Shown here: positions 3,709 to 29,046 of the stretch, one piece after another | How positions within the stretch are numbered: position 1 is the stretch's first letter | Layout: every line of letters starts with the position of its first letter | DNA from: Fidelibacterota bacterium | GTDB taxonomy: Bacteria > Fidelibacterota > Marinisomatia > Marinisomatales > JAHJCW01 | Direction: 5' to 3' | Assembly: GCA_042577295.1 (NCBI GenBank) | Contig: JBHPEE010000001.1 | Coordinates: forward strand, 10,506-74,505 | Length of the DNA: 64,000 nucleotides | Position numbers and translations under genes: made by a program | The notes under the pieces: generated by a model | Told to the model about the DNA's origin: nothing | The model's database searches: none | Seen by the model: only the letters and a program-made list of their open reading frames with translations

Positions 3709-6700
3709 TTAAAACATATATCGCAGACCGACCTGTAAACCCCATCTAGAAAATGGACCTGGATCATCAATAAATGTTTCTTTGATATCACTATTAAATT
3801 TCAAAATCGGTTCGCCTCCGTCAGTCCAACCAGTAAGCTCGAGTGGTGTTGTTGCAGCCGGACTAGCAACTTTCCTTACACCCCAACTGTTATTCACAAG
3901 ATTGGCAACATTCAATAAGTCGATAGTGAACTGGAATGCGCCTACATTGGTTTTGAAATTGTGTAGCACTCGTAGATCAATATTGCTGAACCAAGGATTG
4001 GTCAATCCATGCCTTTCTGCAATTTCACCACGATGTTCGCTAAGATATGAATCTTGCTTAATAAAAGCATTTAAATCGTTCCAATTGCTTGATTCATCAA
4101 GAACAATATCGTTTGCATTATTGGGTATATAGATTAAATCATTTCCACCGACACCATCACCATTTACATCGCCTGCATAAGTGAATGAATAGCGATTACC
4201 GCCTGAATATGTATAACGATTACCTTCTGCTACTTCCACAAACACACCAATATTTGATGAATGTTCAGAATTCCAATTATGCGTATAATTTGCTGTACCA
4301 ATTATACGATGACGGTTACCAAATTCTGAATAACTTAAATTCGGTTTATTCGGGTCTCCCTGTATAGGCTGGCTTTGCCATAATACACTTGCGATTTCTG
4401 TTGATTTTAGATTGTTCTTGGCTTGCAAATAAGTATATGCCAAACTTGTATTTAATCCCGAATCAAACTCTTTCCGGACTTGTGCTGTTATTGTAAGATT
4501 ATAACCTTCATCAGTATTATCAATTACATATACACCCGCAGCTTCTCCGGGGTATGCTTCGTTTAGTTCACGATCAGTTGTAGTTGCACCATAATATGGT
4601 CTACCATCATCTAAATAACGTTCCGGAACATCTAGATCAGCATTCCTCATATAAATGGCATTAATATCTTTTCCATATACAACCTCAAATGTTCCAAGTA
4701 AACCCATTGGCAATTTGGAATCAATAGCAAAATTAGTTGTCCACACTTGCGGCCACTTGAAGTCCTCCACCATTGCATTTAGATCAAATGATTGTTGTAA
4801 TACTGATTTACCTTCAGTATCTCTATTTTCGCCGCTGTCAGTCTCATTGGAATTCTCAGAAATACCTTCCCCGGGATACAGATTTGGATTTGCACCAGGA
4901 TTAGAAAGGACGTTACCAATCCATACAAACGGTAAATGTCCTGTGAAGATACCCGTTCCGCCACGTACTTGCATTGAACGATCTCCTTTGACATCCCAAT
5001 TAAAACCAAAACGCGGTGACCATAGTAATTGTGGATCAGGTAATTTGCTCTGATCAACAGTTTCTGGATCGTCATTTTCATCCAATAATGTTAGTCCTCT
5101 TGAGAATGGATTATCGATAGGATCAGTATTATACATTGGAACGTCAACACGCAGTCCAAAAGTGAGATTTAGATTTCTGGAAGCTACATATTCATCCTGT
5201 GCATAAACTGAAAATTGCCCTACATCTATTAACTCGCCCTTAAAGGGTCCTGAACCAACAAAAGAATTGAAATCAGCAAAATTGTCTGCATCATCTGGGT
5301 CGGTTCGTGCGAAAAAATTATCCAAAGATGAATAAGTCGAGGCTCCAAGAAAGTCCAAATATCCAGCACCAGGGAAGAGTAGATCGAGATCGCCCGTGAG
5401 TTGAAAGAGACCATGACGGAAGATATTGAAGGAATTAAAGAACTTAAATTGTTCATAATTCACACCAGCAGTAAAGACGTGTGGACCCATAAAGTAACTA
5501 ATATTATCAGTAATTTGTAGGACATCCTGGTCGAGTATATTATGTATGGAAAAAGGTTCATACCCCACGGTTGTATATGTCACACCATCCTCTCCAATTT
5601 CAATTGTTGGAAAGTCTGCACTAAATGGTTCACGGAAATCACGGAAACGATTATAACTCGCAAAGAAATGGTTTGCTATTTTTTCACTGAACATGCTGTT
5701 TAATTCGAATGCTAGTGAATGTAAATTATTGTTTATAGCATAACCGGAATTTTGGAATGGTAAACTCGTACTATTTGGACCACGGCCAGTGCCATTAAAA
5801 CTTAGTACAAAACCATGTGGACCTAAATCACGAACAGCATCAAGATAATTATATCTGAATGATGCATTGTGTTTATCGCTGATATTCCAATCAAGTTTTA
5901 AGAGCAACTTATCATTCTCAGTTTTATGCTTATATCCTTGGTATGATCCTGTATCGTAATCATAAACATCCATCATAACCTGACGAATTCGATCCATCGT
6001 GGAAGGGCTAACACGCGATTCTCCAAGCCCATTACCCTCAGCAGCCACAAAGTTTGATCCAGGATCTTCTTTGCGTTCCATTTCACCATTTACGAAGAAA
6101 AATAGTTTGTTTGGAATAATTGGTCCACTAAAAGTAAAACCAGTTTGGTTATAAAATTGATCAGGATCTGCAAATATCTCATTCCCATTTACTTTATTAC
6201 CAACTAATCTGTCATTTTGTACGAAAGTGTAAATCGAACCTTTAAATTTATTAGTCCCGCTCTTGGTAATTGTATTTATTCCTGCTCCTGTATAACCACC
6301 TTCAGTGACTTTAAATGAGGCAACTGATACTTGCACTTGCTCAACCGCATCGAAGGGTATTGATTCAGCATTGGCTTGGCCACCTGGTGCTGGATCATCT
6401 AATCCAAAAGCATTGTTAAAGTTTGAACCATCAACTGATATGTTGTTATACAGCCAATTCTTACCACCAAAACTAAAATTGCCATCACTACGTGGATCTA
6501 ATCGTGTTAAGTCTCGAGTACTTCTTTTAATTGAAGGCATTTGGGTTAATAAATCATCACCGATAAACGTGGCGGCACCAGTTCGGTCTGAATTAAGAAC
6601 AGCGTCTTGAACTCCTGCAACTTCAACTTCCATCATTTCAATTGCTTTAACCTCAAGTTTAAAATCAATACCTTGAGTTTGACCCAATATCAAAAATACA

Positions 6701-24180: not shown

Positions 24181-24342
24181 GAAAGAATTTCCATAGTTTA
24201 AATCATAGAAAAAAATATTTCTTTAGATAAAATAAAAAATTATTAAAAAGACCTTTTTGTCTTGTAATGGTGTAATTATTGTTTTTAAATTCTGTAGTGT
24301 ATACAGCAGTATTTCAGCATTGGCAAATACAGATACAATAAT

Positions 24343-24834
24343 ATGAATGACAATTTAATAGAAAATCCTACTACTCCATTATTCCCATTAAGGGTAGCGG
24401 CAGACTTAACGAGTACTTCAGTCTATGCTCTCAGACAATATGTTGATTTAGGTCTAATCATTCCGTATAAAACCCCTACTAATCGAAGATTATATTCCAG
24501 GGTTGATATCCAAAGGATTCTATGTATCCGAAGATATCTTGATGAGTACGGTTTAAACACTGCCGGAATCAAGGCACTTTTTGCTGCAGTTCCATGTTGG
24601 CTCATAAAACCCTGTACGGAATCCGATTGTGAACAATGTGATGCGTATACATCATTTACCCAACCGTGTTGGCAAGTATCTGTTAAAGGACCTACTTGTC
24701 AAGACGTTGATTGTCGTGTTTGTAAAGTTTACCGATTACCAGAAGAGTGTAATGATTTAAAAACAATATTTAAAAAATTTAATGAAGAAATGAATTATCA
24801 AAACAATACAAGTAAGGTAAATAGTAATAAATGA
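24343..24834 (+). CDS. MerR-family HTH regulator with C-terminal nine-cysteine domain
   Basis: N-terminal MerR/HspR-like wHTH (RVAADLTSTSVYALRQYVDLGLIIPYKTPTNRRLYSRVDIQRI). C-terminal Cys pattern C-x5-C-x4-C-x2-C-x9-C-x9-C-x4-C-x2-C-x8-C. Its stop overlaps the next gene's start (ATGA). Confidence 0.7.
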   Translation: MNDNLIENPTTPLFPLRVAADLTSTSVYALRQYVDLGLIIPYKTPTNRRLYSRVDIQRILCIRRYLDEYGLNTAGIKALFAAVPCWLIKPCTESDCEQCDAYTSFTQPCWQVSVKGPTCQDVDCRVCKVYRLPEECNDLKTIFKKFNEEMNYQNNTSKVNSNK

Positions 24835-26060
24835 AAAAATTAGTCATATTAGGAGCCGGTACAGCCGGCACAATGATTTTAAATAAATTAGAACCTGTCC
24901 TGGATAAAGAGGATTGGCAAATAACCATAGTAGATCAATATGAAACACATTATTACCAACCAGGCTTTCTGTTTATTCCCTTTGGTATTTATAACAAAAA
25001 AGATGTAATAAAACCAAAGCGAGACTTCTTTCCATCAAGCGTTGATGTTATTTTCGATTCAATTGATAAGATACAACCAGATGAAAATAAAGTTCTCTTT
25101 GCAAACAACAAAGTGTTGAACTATGATTATTTAATAATAGCAACTGGATGCAAGATTAATCCAGGTGAAACTGAGGGATTAGCAGAAGACGGTTGGCACA
25201 AAAATATATTTGATTTTTATACAATTGAAGGAGCAATAGGATTAGCACATTTTCTTAAATATTGGGAAGGTGGAAAAATGGTGTTGAATATTACGGAGAT
25301 GCCGATTAAATGTCCCGTCGCACCACTTGAATTTGTATTCTTAGCTGATTGGTGGTTTACGGAACAGGGGATTCGTGATAAAGTAGAAATTTCATTTGTT
25401 ACACCTTTGGATGGGGCTTTCACTAAACCACGTGCATCTAAAGTATTTGGAGACTTTCTATCTAAAAAAAATATAAACTTAATTCCTGATTTTAGCATCA
25501 GCCGTGTTGATCATGAAAATAATAAAATTATTTCTTGGGAAGAGAAAGAAGTTCCATACGATCTATTAGTTACTATCCCAACCAATATGGGCGATGAATT
25601 AATTGAGCGTTCCGGCATGGGCGATGAATTAAATTTTGTGCCTACTGACAAACAAACACTTCAATCTAAAAGCCATAAAAATATCTTTATTATGGGCGAT
25701 GCAACCGATTTACCGAGTTCAAAAGCCGGGTCTGTAGCTCATTTTGAAGCTGATGTATTGTTTGAGAATTTCCTTAGTGCAATTGAAAATAGACCATTGA
25801 GAGCAAAATTTGATGGACATGCTAATTGTTACATTGAATCAGGTTTTGGTAAAGGTATTCTAATAGATTTTAATTATGATACTGAACCGTTACCGGGGAA
25901 ATACCCCCTACCGGGAGTTGGGCCATTCTCCCTTTTGGAAGAAACAAAAATGAACCACTACGGGAAAATAATGTTCCGATGGATGTATTGGAATTTGTTA
26001 TTACGCGGAGCCGAGCTGCCAATAGAATCACAAATGTTAATGGCGGGCAAGAGAAAATAA
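24831..26060 (+). CDS. sqr: Sulfide:quinone oxidoreductase-type FAD-dependent oxidoreductase
   Basis: Rossmann motif ILGAGTAGT. SQR-like redox Cys contexts PIKCPVAPLEF and FDGHANCYIESGFGKGILIDFNYD (compare SQRDL ...CPLVTGY...). C-terminal amphipathic segment. Confidence 0.75.
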   Translation: MKKLVILGAGTAGTMILNKLEPVLDKEDWQITIVDQYETHYYQPGFLFIPFGIYNKKDVIKPKRDFFPSSVDVIFDSIDKIQPDENKVLFANNKVLNYDYLIIATGCKINPGETEGLAEDGWHKNIFDFYTIEGAIGLAHFLKYWEGGKMVLNITEMPIKCPVAPLEFVFLADWWFTEQGIRDKVEISFVTPLDGAFTKPRASKVFGDFLSKKNINLIPDFSISRVDHENNKIISWEEKEVPYDLLVTIPTNMGDELIERSGMGDELNFVPTDKQTLQSKSHKNIFIMGDATDLPSSKAGSVAHFEADVLFENFLSAIENRPLRAKFDGHANCYIESGFGKGILIDFNYDTEPLPGKYPLPGVGPFSLLEETKMNHYGKIMFRWMYWNLLLRGAELPIESQMLMAGKRK

Positions 26061-26061
26061 A

Positions 26062-26751
26062 ATGGCTGATCAAAACTTAGAATTACAATTACAGTCGATC
26101 GATCGGAAATTAGATCTAATTTTTGAAGAATTGGCCGTGGTTCGCAGGCAACGAGAAGAACTGAACGAATTAAAACAAGATTTAACAATTATTGCAAAAG
26201 ATTTATTTAGTGCAGCAATTGATGAATTCGAAGATATTGCACCGTTTGTTCAAACCGGAGATTTTTTGCATCTGTTGAAGAAAATTCTACAAAACACTCA
26301 AAATATCACTATGGTAATGACAAAATTTGAAAGTGGGTTGGATTTCTTTGCCGATGCAAAACCTGTTGGCAAAGAATTATTTAATGATACTCTAGAAAAA
26401 TTAAATGAATTTGATCAAAAGGGCTATTTTCAATTTATCAAAGAGTTAATAAATGTAGCGGATCGAGTTGTAGAACATTTTTCAGAAAAAGATGTCAAGT
26501 TACTTGGTGATAACATTATTACAATCCTTGAAACTGTTAAAGGCTTAACGCAACCGGAAATGTTATCGGCAATGAATAATGCCGTTGGTATTTATCAGAA
26601 TCTTGATCCCAAAGATACACCTCAGTATTCTATTTGGAAAGTGATGCGTGAACTAAATACACCAGAAATGAAAAGGGGTATCGGTTATGTGATCACCTTT
26701 TTAAAGAAAATTACAGCAGAACAAGAAAATCAAAATAAACAAAGGAGTTAA
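26062..26751 (+). CDS. Helical protein, DUF1641-like (tentative)
   Basis: N-terminal coiled coil plus a helical C-terminal half. The assignment rests mainly on the recurrent pairing of DUF1641 proteins with SQR/NDH-2-type flavoproteins. No diagnostic motif was verified by eye. Confidence 0.4.
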   Translation: MADQNLELQLQSIDRKLDLIFEELAVVRRQREELNELKQDLTIIAKDLFSAAIDEFEDIAPFVQTGDFLHLLKKILQNTQNITMVMTKFESGLDFFADAKPVGKELFNDTLEKLNEFDQKGYFQFIKELINVADRVVEHFSEKDVKLLGDNIITILETVKGLTQPEMLSAMNNAVGIYQNLDPKDTPQYSIWKVMRELNTPEMKRGIGYVITFLKKITAEQENQNKQRS

Positions 26752-26753
26752 AT

Positions 26754-27071
26754 ATGGTAGCAAGAGAAATTGCCGGGGTTACAGTTGATGTTGATATTGA
26801 TGGTTACATGACTGATTACAAATCATGGAATAAAGAAATAGCCGAAGCCTTTGCAAAAGAACAAGGAATTGATGAATTAACTGATCGTCACAATATCGTT
26901 ATCGAATTTATGCGTAAGGAATTTGAAGAAAACGGTACCGGACCATCAATACGGAAATTAAATAAACAAAGCGGTGTTTCTACTAAAGAATTATACCAGC
27001 TTTTCCCAGGTGGGCCTGCAAAGAAAGCCGCACTTATTGCCGGAATACCAAAACCTCAAGGTTGCATTTAA
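26754..27071 (+). CDS. TusE/DsrC-family sulfur-relay protein (single C-terminal Cys)
   Basis: 105 aa. The C-terminus LFPGGPAKKAALIAGIPKPQGCI matches the TusE/DsrC signature (LFP.GPAK.A..IAG.PKP..C-x). The second, upstream DsrC Cys is absent. Confidence 0.85.
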   Translation: MVAREIAGVTVDVDIDGYMTDYKSWNKEIAEAFAKEQGIDELTDRHNIVIEFMRKEFEENGTGPSIRKLNKQSGVSTKELYQLFPGGPAKKAALIAGIPKPQGCI

Positions 27072-27086
27072 GAATAGGAGAAAATC

Positions 27087-27599
27087 ATGAGTGAATATGA
27101 GCCAATAAAAAAGGTTTCGCTTGTTTGTGCTAAGGGTGGATTGGAAGAAGTTTATCCATCATTGATTATGGCCAACGGCGCCCGCATGGAAGGAATTGAA
27201 GCATCTATTTTCTTTACATTTTTTGGTCTGAACGCTATTGTTAAAAAAACACATGGAAACTTAAAGGTTGCCACTGTCGGTAACGCTGCGTTAAACCTTG
27301 CGATGCCAATGTTAAAAATGCCGATTACAATGCCATTCCCAACATTATTAGGTGCAATTCCTGGAGTATCAAATTTTGCAACTTGGTTAATGAAAAGAGA
27401 AATGGAAAAACTAGATGTGCCACCCGTTGGCGAATTTTTAGAAATGATGAGCGATGCTGGTGTCGAAATTTATGCCTGTAAAATGACTGTTGATATGTAT
27501 GGTTTAACTATGGATGATTTTGTGCCACAGGTTAGTGGAATAATGACAGTTGGCGAATTCTATGAAAAATCTGCCGGTGCTCAAATAATTTTTACATAA
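27087..27599 (+). CDS. DsrE/DsrF-like (COG2210-type) sulfur-transfer family protein
   Basis: 170 aa with a DsrE-like fold pattern (VSLVCAKGGLEEVYPSLIMANGA...FFTFFGL) and a conserved Cys in VEIYACKMT. Confidence 0.65.
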   Translation: MSEYEPIKKVSLVCAKGGLEEVYPSLIMANGARMEGIEASIFFTFFGLNAIVKKTHGNLKVATVGNAALNLAMPMLKMPITMPFPTLLGAIPGVSNFATWLMKREMEKLDVPPVGEFLEMMSDAGVEIYACKMTVDMYGLTMDDFVPQVSGIMTVGEFYEKSAGAQIIFT

Positions 27600-27690: not shown

Positions 27691-28872
27691 TTATTTAAGC
27701 AAGACCATTTTATTGGTCTGTATAAATCCTTCAGCTTCAATCTGATAAATATAAACACCGGCATTTACCAAATTACCTGTATAATCTCTGCCATCCCAAT
27801 TAATTGATCTACTCCCTACCGGTTCGATTTGGTTAACCAATGTAATAATTTCTCTGCCTAATAGATCGAATACTGAAATCTTTATATTTGATTCTCTGCT
27901 AACATCGTAAAAAATTGTCGTAGTCGGATTAAACGGATTTGGGAAGTTTTGGTGTAATTGGAACTCATTTGGAATTGTAAGATTTTCTTCCACGCTAGAC
28001 AAATTTGTCAATTCATTAAACTCAACTGTATGATTATTAAAATTGGGGACAATTAGAATACCTGTGTTACTATTTGTTTTGGTTAATTTATTAATCTTTT
28101 CCGTGGAAGTTAATTCATGAAAAAAAATGTCTGCAGGTCCATCATGCTGGCTCGACACCAAATATGGATTATCAGATAAACCACCATTAACACCTGAAAA
28201 ATCACTATTAAATCTATAGATGGAATTATTTCCCCAATAAGATATATAATAATTACCAACCATATCGCATGCAATACCATCAGGCTGATCTAATGTGGTT
28301 GCTCTAATTTGTGATATTGTTCTATCACCCATATTGACAGCCATTATTGGTGCATTGCTTATCATCGGAACAAATATTAACCGGCTATTATCACCATCCC
28401 AATACAATCCATTCGGGTTTGATAAACTTTCAGCTAATGTTTCATATGATCCCCCGCTAATGATTAATTTGTATATTTTTCCTGTTTCTGTATCACTGAC
28501 AAATAAGATATCCGAATTGTCACTGGTTATATCATTTAAAAATCCCATACCTGGAATTACAACTGTTTGAGTAATTGTACCCGCAGGAAGCGATATAAAA
28601 ACAACGCCTTCATCTGCTGCTGCAAAAAGCGTATTTCCAATTATACAAAGTCCTCTAACACTTGTTAAATCACTATTCAATACACTTTTTGAATTAGTAT
28701 CATTAGCGTCAACTTTTAATATTTTCCCATCACCTTTATTTGAAACATAATAACAGTTATTGTTAGGATCATAAACAGCGCTTTCCGGATTATTGTAAGC
28801 TTGGGCGAATATTATATTAGAAAGGAATGGACATATAAATATTAGAAGAAATAATGACCTTATTAATTTCAT
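27691..28872 (-). CDS. Secreted beta-propeller protein (NHL/SMP-30-like repeats) with T9SS C-terminal sorting domain
   Basis: Signal peptide and repeated ...G.a.D..gn.Yvs... blades. The C-terminal ~80 aa (LHQNFPNPFNPTTTIFYDV...GVYIYQIEAEGFIQTNKMVLLK) is a Por secretion CTD. Confidence 0.75.
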   Translation of the reverse strand: MKLIRSLFLLIFICPFLSNIIFAQAYNNPESAVYDPNNNCYYVSNKGDGKILKVDANDTNSKSVLNSDLTSVRGLCIIGNTLFAAADEGVVFISLPAGTITQTVVIPGMGFLNDITSDNSDILFVSDTETGKIYKLIISGGSYETLAESLSNPNGLYWDGDNSRLIFVPMISNAPIMAVNMGDRTISQIRATTLDQPDGIACDMVGNYYISYWGNNSIYRFNSDFSGVNGGLSDNPYLVSSQHDGPADIFFHELTSTEKINKLTKTNSNTGILIVPNFNNHTVEFNELTNLSSVEENLTIPNEFQLHQNFPNPFNPTTTIFYDVSRESNIKISVFDLLGREIITLVNQIEPVGSRSINWDGRDYTGNLVNAGVYIYQIEAEGFIQTNKMVLLK

Positions 28873-29046
28873 ATTAACCTCCAATTAATAAATTGATAGG
28901 TTATAATATAAATATAGTTGGTGTTTTTAAAAAAAGGGAACTTAATCGAACAGATTAGCAGGCTTCATTGTCAGAAAATAAAATAATATTGTTTAATTTA
29001 CGGTAACCCATCGTGTCAATTGCCTAAAATTACTGTAAATTTGACC

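Follow-up and report, generated by a model that had tools for sequence, protein, structure and literature searches.

A putative GlnR/HspR-like repressor with a two-CW-like cysteine domain heads a sulfide:quinone oxidoreductase operon in a Fidelibacterota genome

The 64,000-nucleotide stretch of a Fidelibacterota genome analysed here (the window; contig JBHPEE010000001.1, positions 10,506 to 74,505) encodes, at 24343..24834 on the forward strand, a 163-amino-acid (aa) regulator composed of a MerR-superfamily helix-turn-helix (HTH) domain and a cysteine-rich domain that resembles the two-CW domain of the NCBIfam collection. The reading we favour, with a probability of roughly 55%, is that this protein is an autoregulated repressor of a five-gene sulfur operon, released by a sulfur or redox signal that is sensed at a metal- or cluster-thiolate centre in the two-CW domain. 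Domain identity and HTH class, operon membership, synteny, the operator motif and promoter geometry are shown by the analysis, while binding of the regulator to these operators, its possession of a cofactor and the identity of the signal are what we infer.

The regulator gene is followed on the same strand by genes for a type III sulfide:quinone oxidoreductase (SQR; 24831..26060; NF049943, 670.5 bits against a cut-off of 525), a DUF1641 protein (26062..26751; PF07849, 34.6 bits), a DsrC/TusE-family sulfur relay protein (26754..27071; PF04358, 114.6 bits; TIGR03342, 95.1 bits) and, as the last gene of the operon, a DsrE2-like sulfur carrier (27087..27599; PF13686, 109.5 bits). The TGA stop codon of the regulator gene overlaps the ATG start codon of the SQR gene in the ATGA at 24831-24834, confirming the proposal of the first-pass annotation, made from the sequence alone, that the regulator is the first gene of its operon. 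As the gene 3′ of the DsrE2-like carrier is on the opposite strand, the same-strand run ends there, and a five-gene operon headed by the regulator was delimited.

For comparison, relatives were collected in three sets: 58 close homologues (56-88% identity) from metagenome-assembled genomes (MAGs) of Marinimicrobia and the Fibrobacterota-Chlorobiota-Bacteroidota (FCB) group; 62 further full-length proteins, plus the frameshifted copy L068, obtained by scanning a single genome for each species (42-87% identity; Marinimicrobia/Fidelibacterota, Bacteroidales, Prolixibacteraceae and Ignavibacteria); and 245 clusters at 50% identity retrieved with a profile of the cysteine module alone. SQR is encoded directly 3′ of the regulator in 30 of the 63 genome loci, and all four downstream genes (SQR, DUF1641, DsrC and DsrE2) are present in 27 of these 30, one of the 27 ending at a contig end. 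With synteny kept in 30 loci, the suspected link to sulfide metabolism is strong.

Two predicted operator sites lie between the promoter region and the regulator gene. Site 1 (24290..24311, TTCTGTAGTGTATACAGCAGTA), with the consensus TTCTGY-N10-RCAGAA, abuts a -10-like box, and site 2 (24313..24334, TTCAGCATTGGCAAATACAGAT) is placed exactly 23 bp downstream of it. Site 1 has one mismatch to TTCTG-N12-CAGAA, and most orthologous loci have a site at the corresponding position. Pairs of 22-bp palindromes with no more than two mismatches to TTCTG-N12-CAGAA, always exactly 23 bp apart, were found in the window and in 19 of the 30 SQR-linked loci, and four more of the 30 have one such site. At no more than one mismatch, the density of the motif was 5.9 per kb in upstream regions versus 0.17 per kb in whole loci, a 36-fold difference.

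The putative promoter (24262..24290, forward strand) consists of a -35-like TTGTAA (24262-24267), a 17-bp spacer and a -10-like TTAAAT (24285-24290). When 24 upstream regions were aligned with site 1 as the anchor, a TCTTGTA or TTGACA element proved to be conserved, separated by a 17-bp spacer from a TAAT(TT) that extends into the first half-site; the promoters of loci L024, L026, L027 and L029 read TTGACA-17-TAATTT. The palindromes thus begin at the -10 box and overlie the point where transcription is expected to start, which is a repressor arrangement and not that of a MerR-type activator.

Variation among the relatives bears on which protein would bind these sites. In a subclade formed by L031, L032, L033 and L035, the half-sites are changed from CTG/CAG to CTA/TAG (TTCTA/TAGAG and ATCTA-N12-TAGAT), and the recognition helix of the same four regulators is changed from YALRQY to YTLRMY (Q32 to M). 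This co-variation supports, short of proof, predicted binding by the cognate regulator. Paralogs linked to Psr-type operons (see below) are preceded by different repeats of a CTAGATT type, which suggests that each paralog may have its own operator. The upstream region also contains the palindrome AAGAC-N6-GTCTT at 24248..24263 (GACCTTTTTGTCTTG), which overlaps the -35-like box and occurs once in the window. In other MAGs the element is conserved ahead of the regulator genes of both the SQR-linked and the Psr-linked paralogs, and it may act as a second operator or be bound by another, shared factor.

The Pfam match to the regulator was the MerR HTH alone (PF13411, MerR_1; residues 18-81, 39.7 bits against a gathering threshold of 21.6), and no Pfam domain was found over its cysteine region. 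The winged HTH (24394..24585, forward strand, residues 18-81) was closest in sequence, among solved structures, to GlnR (4r4e, E 1.5e-12, residues 2-82) and TnrA. In the AlphaFold2 model the HTH has a predicted local distance difference test (pLDDT) score above 90, the wing is followed by a helix limited to residues 73-81, with the cysteine module directly after it, and a long coiled-coil dimerisation helix after the HTH is absent. A Foldseek search of the PDB with the full-length model returned the GlnR-DNA and TnrA-DNA complexes (4r4e, 4r22 and 4r24) as top matches, all matches covering the HTH only. The best NCBIfam match was HspR (NF047375), at 45.9 bits under its cut-off of 105, and the TnrA model scored 20.6 bits against a cut-off of 140. 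Scores for the equivalogs of the classical branch were likewise under their cut-offs (SoxR, 18.3 vs 116.9; CueR, 15.5 vs 147.4; MerR, 13.5 vs 150.85). No match to the operator HAIR (CTTGAGT-N7-ACTCAAG) was detected in the window at up to three mismatches, and none to the TnrA box (TGTNA-N7-TNACA) in 24181-24342 at no more than one mismatch. Because of the GlnR and TnrA sequence and fold matches, the HspR top match in NCBIfam and the short post-wing helix, we place the regulator, as predicted from sequence, in the short, repressor-type GlnR/TnrA/HspR-like branch of the MerR superfamily, outside the GlnR, TnrA and HspR equivalogs proper.

This placement changes two points of the first-pass annotation. 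It had measured the protein against MerR, CueR and SoxR, which belong to the wrong branch, and had regarded the first-gene position as atypical. Short MerR proteins of the GlnR/TnrA/HspR type act as repressors, and GlnR itself is encoded at the head of its operon, glnRA, so that the position of the regulator gene is not anomalous. The observation that the cysteine module differs from the effector site of MerR, CueR and SoxR was borne out.

The regulator contains cysteines at residues 61, 85, 91, 96, 99, 109, 119, 124, 127 and 136. Nine of them fall in residues 85-136 (24595-24750), with spacings after C85 of 5, 4, 2, 9, 9, 4, 2 and 8 residues, exactly as had been noted, and both peptides described as units, VPCWLIKPCTESDCEQC and QPCWQVSVKGPTCQDVDCRVC, are present in the protein. 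The core of the two-CW-like module (24592..24732, forward strand, residues 84-130) reads PCW-x4-C-x7-C-x-AY ... PCW-x8-C-x4-CRxC-x-VY. It is followed by a lineage-specific extension (24733..24780, forward strand) with C136, D138, K140 and K144, four residues invariant in a 31-sequence alignment, and with a C-terminal helix; this extension may be a dimerisation or partner-binding surface. Recurrence of the cysteine pattern across the three sets of relatives is far beyond chance.

Conservation was counted over 244 near-complete instances of the domain. C85, C91, C99, C109, C124 and C127 are conserved at 98-100% and the Trp residues of the two CW motifs at 98-99%, with flanking positions A101 (90%), Y/F102 (82%), V/I129 (94%) and Y/F130 (99%). 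A cysteine between the second CW and C124 (C119 in the window protein) is present in 86% of instances, at a position that shifts. Position 96 is Cys in 11% and Arg in 65% of instances, and Cys in 16% of close relatives. C136 is present in 56%, mostly in MerR fusions; it is invariant among close relatives and lost in many Bacteroidales members, which have Y, H, N, F or A instead. Three of the four sequences that lack C91 carry C96 (Fisher p = 0.004), and this replacement suggests that neighbouring cysteines may swap for each other, as metal ligands often do. His was never found in place of Cys at any conserved position.

These counts modify the idea that eight paired cysteines are conserved: six stand at 98-100% and a seventh at 86%, whereas C96 is mostly Arg in the relatives. 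Two sites of four cysteines each do not fit the conservation either, the invariant set being six cysteines, three per half, plus the mobile seventh. The tandem repeat of two PCW units was upheld. Alignment of the first-half against the second-half profile with hhalign gave a probability of 96.4% and an E value of 1.2e-9 that may be optimistic for short Cys-rich profiles, and paired PCW with PCW, C91 with C119, position 96 with C124, C99 with C127 and AY with VY. Each unit of the window protein has four cysteines, and conservation is asymmetric in that unit 1 keeps C85, C91 and C99, and unit 2 keeps C109, C124 and C127.

The module had been treated as unique to the window regulator, and this did not hold; it belongs, in divergent form, to a larger superfamily of sensory domains. 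The module profile retrieved carriers other than MerR proteins, including two methyl-accepting chemotaxis proteins (MCPs; P0078, from a Thermodesulfobacteriota MAG, and P0099) with two tandem C-terminal copies each, a GGDEF protein with two copies (P0162), a receiver-domain protein (P0206), a protein with an OmpR-type winged HTH, a MerR HTH and the module (P0182), a module doublet alone (P0201) and many small proteins of 60-130 aa. The MCP, GGDEF and doublet proteins match the NCBIfam model NF045718, "two-CW domain", at 39-93 bits (cut-off 35), and the module profile in turn retrieves NF045718-positive MCPs at E 5e-13. The window module itself gave no match to NF045718 even at E up to 10, MerR-fused relatives scored 7-14 bits, under the cut-off of 35, and only five of 63 superfamily members without an HTH reached that cut-off. 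When the MerR-fused module was aligned with eight NF045718-positive domains by hhalign, the probability was 98.7% (E 2e-16), with seven cysteines and both CW motifs in register. The window module is thus assigned, by profile comparison, to a divergent, short-loop and uncurated branch of the two-CW superfamily, whose sole curated representative is NF045718. As the module is found in MCP, GGDEF and receiver fusions and as a stand-alone copy beside a histidine kinase gene, its distribution is that expected of an input module.

The stand-alone copy in question is a 79-aa two-CW protein (L085, 4001-4240) encoded upstream of the histidine kinase gene. A 118-aa two-CW protein (L088, 2363-2719) is encoded directly 5′ of a molybdopterin oxidoreductase gene.

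An AlphaFold2 model of the isolated cysteine domain, built from a 94-sequence alignment, had a mean pLDDT of 83 and a core of about 90. Foldseek found no match to this model in the PDB at E up to 10. A search of PDB sequences with the two-CW profile returned nothing significant, the best match being a plant two-zinc SBP DNA-binding domain (8j4b, E 0.43), and a word-index search of proteins, started from the domain alignment, was likewise unproductive (12 matches). The SBP domain and the two-CW profile share a similar spacing around C-x9-C and CxxC-x-[VF]-[YH], which, not being significant, is a lead only. In the literature collection searched, no paper on the "two-CW domain" was found, and likewise nothing on a MerR-type regulator of sqr.

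The other gene neighbourhoods of the regulator family extend the link to sulfur. Twelve more distant paralogs (L036, L037, L039, L040, L042, L044, L045, L047, L050, L051, L064 and L065; regulator near 6000, operon to about 11000) precede genes that share a size pattern of approximately 747, 177 and 313 aa. Two of these loci were checked with Pfam and the rest were assigned by gene sizes. In L037, genes for a molybdopterin oxidoreductase, a 4Fe-4S protein and two NrfD-type membrane proteins lie 3′ of the regulator, and in L045 the cluster closes with a YeeE-like sulfur transporter. These 12 operons are thus predicted to be polysulfide- or thiosulfate-reductase (Psr)-like. Elsewhere, the gene order is regulator, TusA, unknown, HdrB/C-like and DsrE2 (L013 and L001), the paralog heads an operon with a multihaem cytochrome c/b fusion (L057 and L067), or a molybdopterin oxidoreductase gene follows (P0218). 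Two paralogs, each at its own locus, are present in eight MAGs. At L009 (9242-9712) and L010 (9250-9690), the gene directly after dsrE2 also encodes a two-CW MerR regulator, a second paralog with 42-45% identity.

These features can be combined into a mechanism. The regulator would bind the two tandem 22-bp palindromes as two dimers, 23 bp centre to centre, and, as the sites extend from the -10 box across the transcription start, RNA polymerase would be blocked and the protein's own operon repressed. The C-terminal 50-60 residues would form a compact, duplicated two-CW sensor, in which the six invariant and one or two auxiliary cysteines would most likely hold a metal-thiolate centre. Two forms of such a centre would fit, an Fe-S cluster or a binuclear or double zinc site. 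The six invariant cysteines, of which each repeat has three, would suit either a binuclear M2Cys6 centre or a cluster that has ligands to spare, and the lack of Cys-to-His substitution leans slightly away from zinc. The signal would most probably be sulfane sulfur (polysulfide) or sulfide, made or used by the regulated enzymes, with a redox change as the alternative. Sulfane sulfur is attractive because SQR produces it and Psr consumes it, and because several known sqr regulators respond to it. Its reaction with the centre would remodel the domain and lower DNA affinity or dimerisation, so that the operon would be derepressed. In GlnR and TnrA the C-terminal region controls dimerisation and DNA binding (structures 4r4e, 4r22 and 4r24), and by analogy the two-CW domain could plausibly act on the HTH in a similar way.

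A first rival, which we regard as unlikely, is that the two-CW domain carries an O2- or redox-labile Fe-S cluster as in FNR, NsrR or SoxR, so that the protein would report O2 or redox state and switch its operon by electron-acceptor availability. The carriers do come mostly from anaerobic lineages (the Thermodesulfobacteriota MCP P0078, Ignavibacteria, Bacteroidales and Marinimicrobia), chemotaxis receptors and a GGDEF protein are places where redox or aerotaxis inputs are common, two paralogs head the multihaem cytochrome operons, and no His ever replaces a conserved Cys. The C-x5-C-x7-C spacing also resembles the cluster ligands of the Rrf2 type. On the other side, the gene contexts in Marinimicrobia are nearly all sulfur-specific and do not consist of general respiratory genes, and no canonical Fe-S motif is present: Pfam and NCBIfam gave no match to the Fe-S sensors SoxR, Rrf2/IscR/NsrR, WhiB and FNR, and the spacing is unlike CX2CXCX5C or the other ligand motifs of those families.

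A second rival, which we consider rather doubtful, moves the sensing elsewhere: the cysteine domain would be a structural zinc fold or an otherwise inert docking or dimerisation fold, and the signal would arrive through a partner such as persulfidated DsrC, DsrE2 or TusA. Control by a partner has precedents in this branch, as glutamine synthetase (GlnR/TnrA) and DnaK (HspR) act through the C-terminal regions of the regulators, and candidate partners are at hand in the sulfur carriers encoded in the same operons. The best, non-significant PDB match is a two-zinc domain (the SBP domain above), and duplication with three invariant cysteines per half resembles the logic of Zn2Cys6 proteins. The absence of His substitutions, however, speaks weakly against zinc here too, and the module is also found on MCP, GGDEF and receiver proteins in organisms or contexts without these carriers. 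Occurrence of the module outside a sulfur-carrier context therefore favours an autonomous sensor.

A metal-free thiol switch, in which Cys pairs would form di-, tri- or tetrasulfide bridges with sulfane sulfur, like SqrR, CstR and FisR, appears improbable. Sensors of other families encoded with sqr do work in this way (PMC11211675), and the module is rich in thiols, but such switches need two cysteines, whereas this domain has six or seven invariant cysteines in about 45 residues, two invariant Trp residues and an internal duplication. Its Cys/Trp pattern is typical of cofactor-binding folds, and the apparent replacement of C91 by C96 looks like the swapping of ligands. Finally, a classical MerR sensor of heavy metals (Hg, Cu, Zn or Cd) that activates by promoter distortion shares the HTH superfamily and the many cysteines, but this and a SoxR-like reading were rejected on scores (13-18 bits against SoxR, CueR and MerR cut-offs of 117-151), fold (no long dimerisation helix) and promoter geometry (17-bp spacer, operators downstream of the -10 box), with no metal efflux or detoxification genes beside the regulator in the loci examined, so that it can practically be set aside.

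Several observations weigh against the reading of an autoregulated sulfur-responsive repressor. The motif is missing from seven of the 30 orthologous upstream regions: L031, L033, L035 and L046 lack a TTCTG/CAGAA site, L031, L033 and L035 carrying the variant half-site described above, and in the three others different sequence precedes the regulator. A consensus promoter scanner did not call the promoter of the window, which matches at 8 of 12 positions. As the scanner made no call, the promoter assignment is drawn from conservation across loci, and promoters of the FCB group can differ from the sigma-70 consensus. The gene contexts in Bacteroidales are mixed and not sulfur-related. Where a genome carries one paralog on an oxidative (SQR) operon and another on a reductive (Psr) operon, the two do not have to respond to a common signal. 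The cysteine spacing matches no known Fe-S motif, and the sequence itself reveals no cofactor.

Two features of the surrounding sequence were noted separately. As the best NCBIfam model for the SQR, NF049943, describes a selenoprotein subtype of type III SQR, a selenoprotein was considered; it was rejected because an in-frame TGA is absent from the window SQR and from 31 orthologues. The window SQR has Cys at residues 107, 161 and 333. The neighbouring open reading frame at 27691-28884 on the reverse strand has a C-terminal end that resembles a type IX secretion C-terminal sorting domain, in keeping with an FCB-group origin of the window.

A GlnR/HspR-like repressor joined to a two-CW sensor, with a predicted operator and a sulfur-operon regulon in the FCB group, seems to be undescribed so far. 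More tentatively, and at less than even odds in our estimate, the two-CW domain in general may be a cofactor-bearing (Fe-S or polynuclear metal-thiolate) input of sulfide, polysulfide or redox signals to transcription (through MerR fusions at SQR, Psr and Hdr-like sulfur operons of the FCB group), chemotaxis, cyclic di-GMP (c-di-GMP) turnover and two-component signalling; the window protein would in that case be the first example of a new class of regulators that respond to sulfur. A sulfur or redox sensor of this kind would be a new sensor class beside SqrR, CstR and FisR, would explain why the module recurs on the chemoreceptors and c-di-GMP enzymes of anaerobes, and could be used as a small component of sulfide biosensors. 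Oxygen-minimum zones and sediments are rich in Marinimicrobia and their relatives, which carry both sulfide-oxidising (SQR) and polysulfide-reducing (Psr) systems. The analysis also provides a concrete regulator, two candidate operators and a regulon that are open to direct testing, and a first functional handle on a domain that exists as a database model and for which neither literature nor a solved structure was found.

Compared with known systems, the window protein shares with GlnR, TnrA and HspR the winged HTH with the same N-terminal PLFP(L/I) segment, the absence of a long coiled coil, the tandem palindromic operators at the promoter in a repressor layout and the position of the gene as the first of its own operon. 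It differs from them in its operator, TTCTGY-N10-RCAGAA, with neither TnrA box nor HAIR upstream, and from GlnR and TnrA in its C-terminus, which is a Cys-rich two-CW domain in place of their glutamine-synthetase-binding tail. With SoxR, CueR and MerR it has in common the HTH superfamily and the placement of cysteines C-terminal to the DNA-binding domain, where the sensing cysteines of those proteins also lie. The long alpha-5 coiled coil, the CX2CXCX5C motif and the C-terminal metal loop of those proteins are absent from it, and whereas their operator is inside a 19-20-bp spacer, the spacer in the window is 17 bp and the operators are past the -10 box. The domain of NF045718 has the two CW motifs and the same seven cysteines in register with the window module, but its loop between the fifth and sixth Cys is about 14-16 residues, compared with 4 in the window module, which adds cysteines (C96 and C136) and a conserved C-terminal helix.

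Sensors of other families are known for sqr operons, of which FisR, SqrR, CstR and YrkD answer to sulfane sulfur and NreBC to sulfide (PMC11211675, PMC9918477). As with SqrR/BigR (ArsR family), CstR/YrkD (CsoR family), FisR (a sigma-54 activator) and NreBC, a regulator encoded with or near sqr would switch on genes of sulfide oxidation in answer to sulfide or sulfane sulfur. The folds of SqrR, CstR, FisR and NreB are unrelated to that of the window protein, and they use two or three cysteines, or a PAS-bound cluster in NreB, with neither a MerR HTH nor a two-CW domain; in the window regulator only MerR domains were detected, with no ArsR, CsoR or sigma-54-activator fold. The window regulator is thus considered to fulfil the role of SqrR, CstR and FisR through unrelated components, its resemblance to them being functional only.

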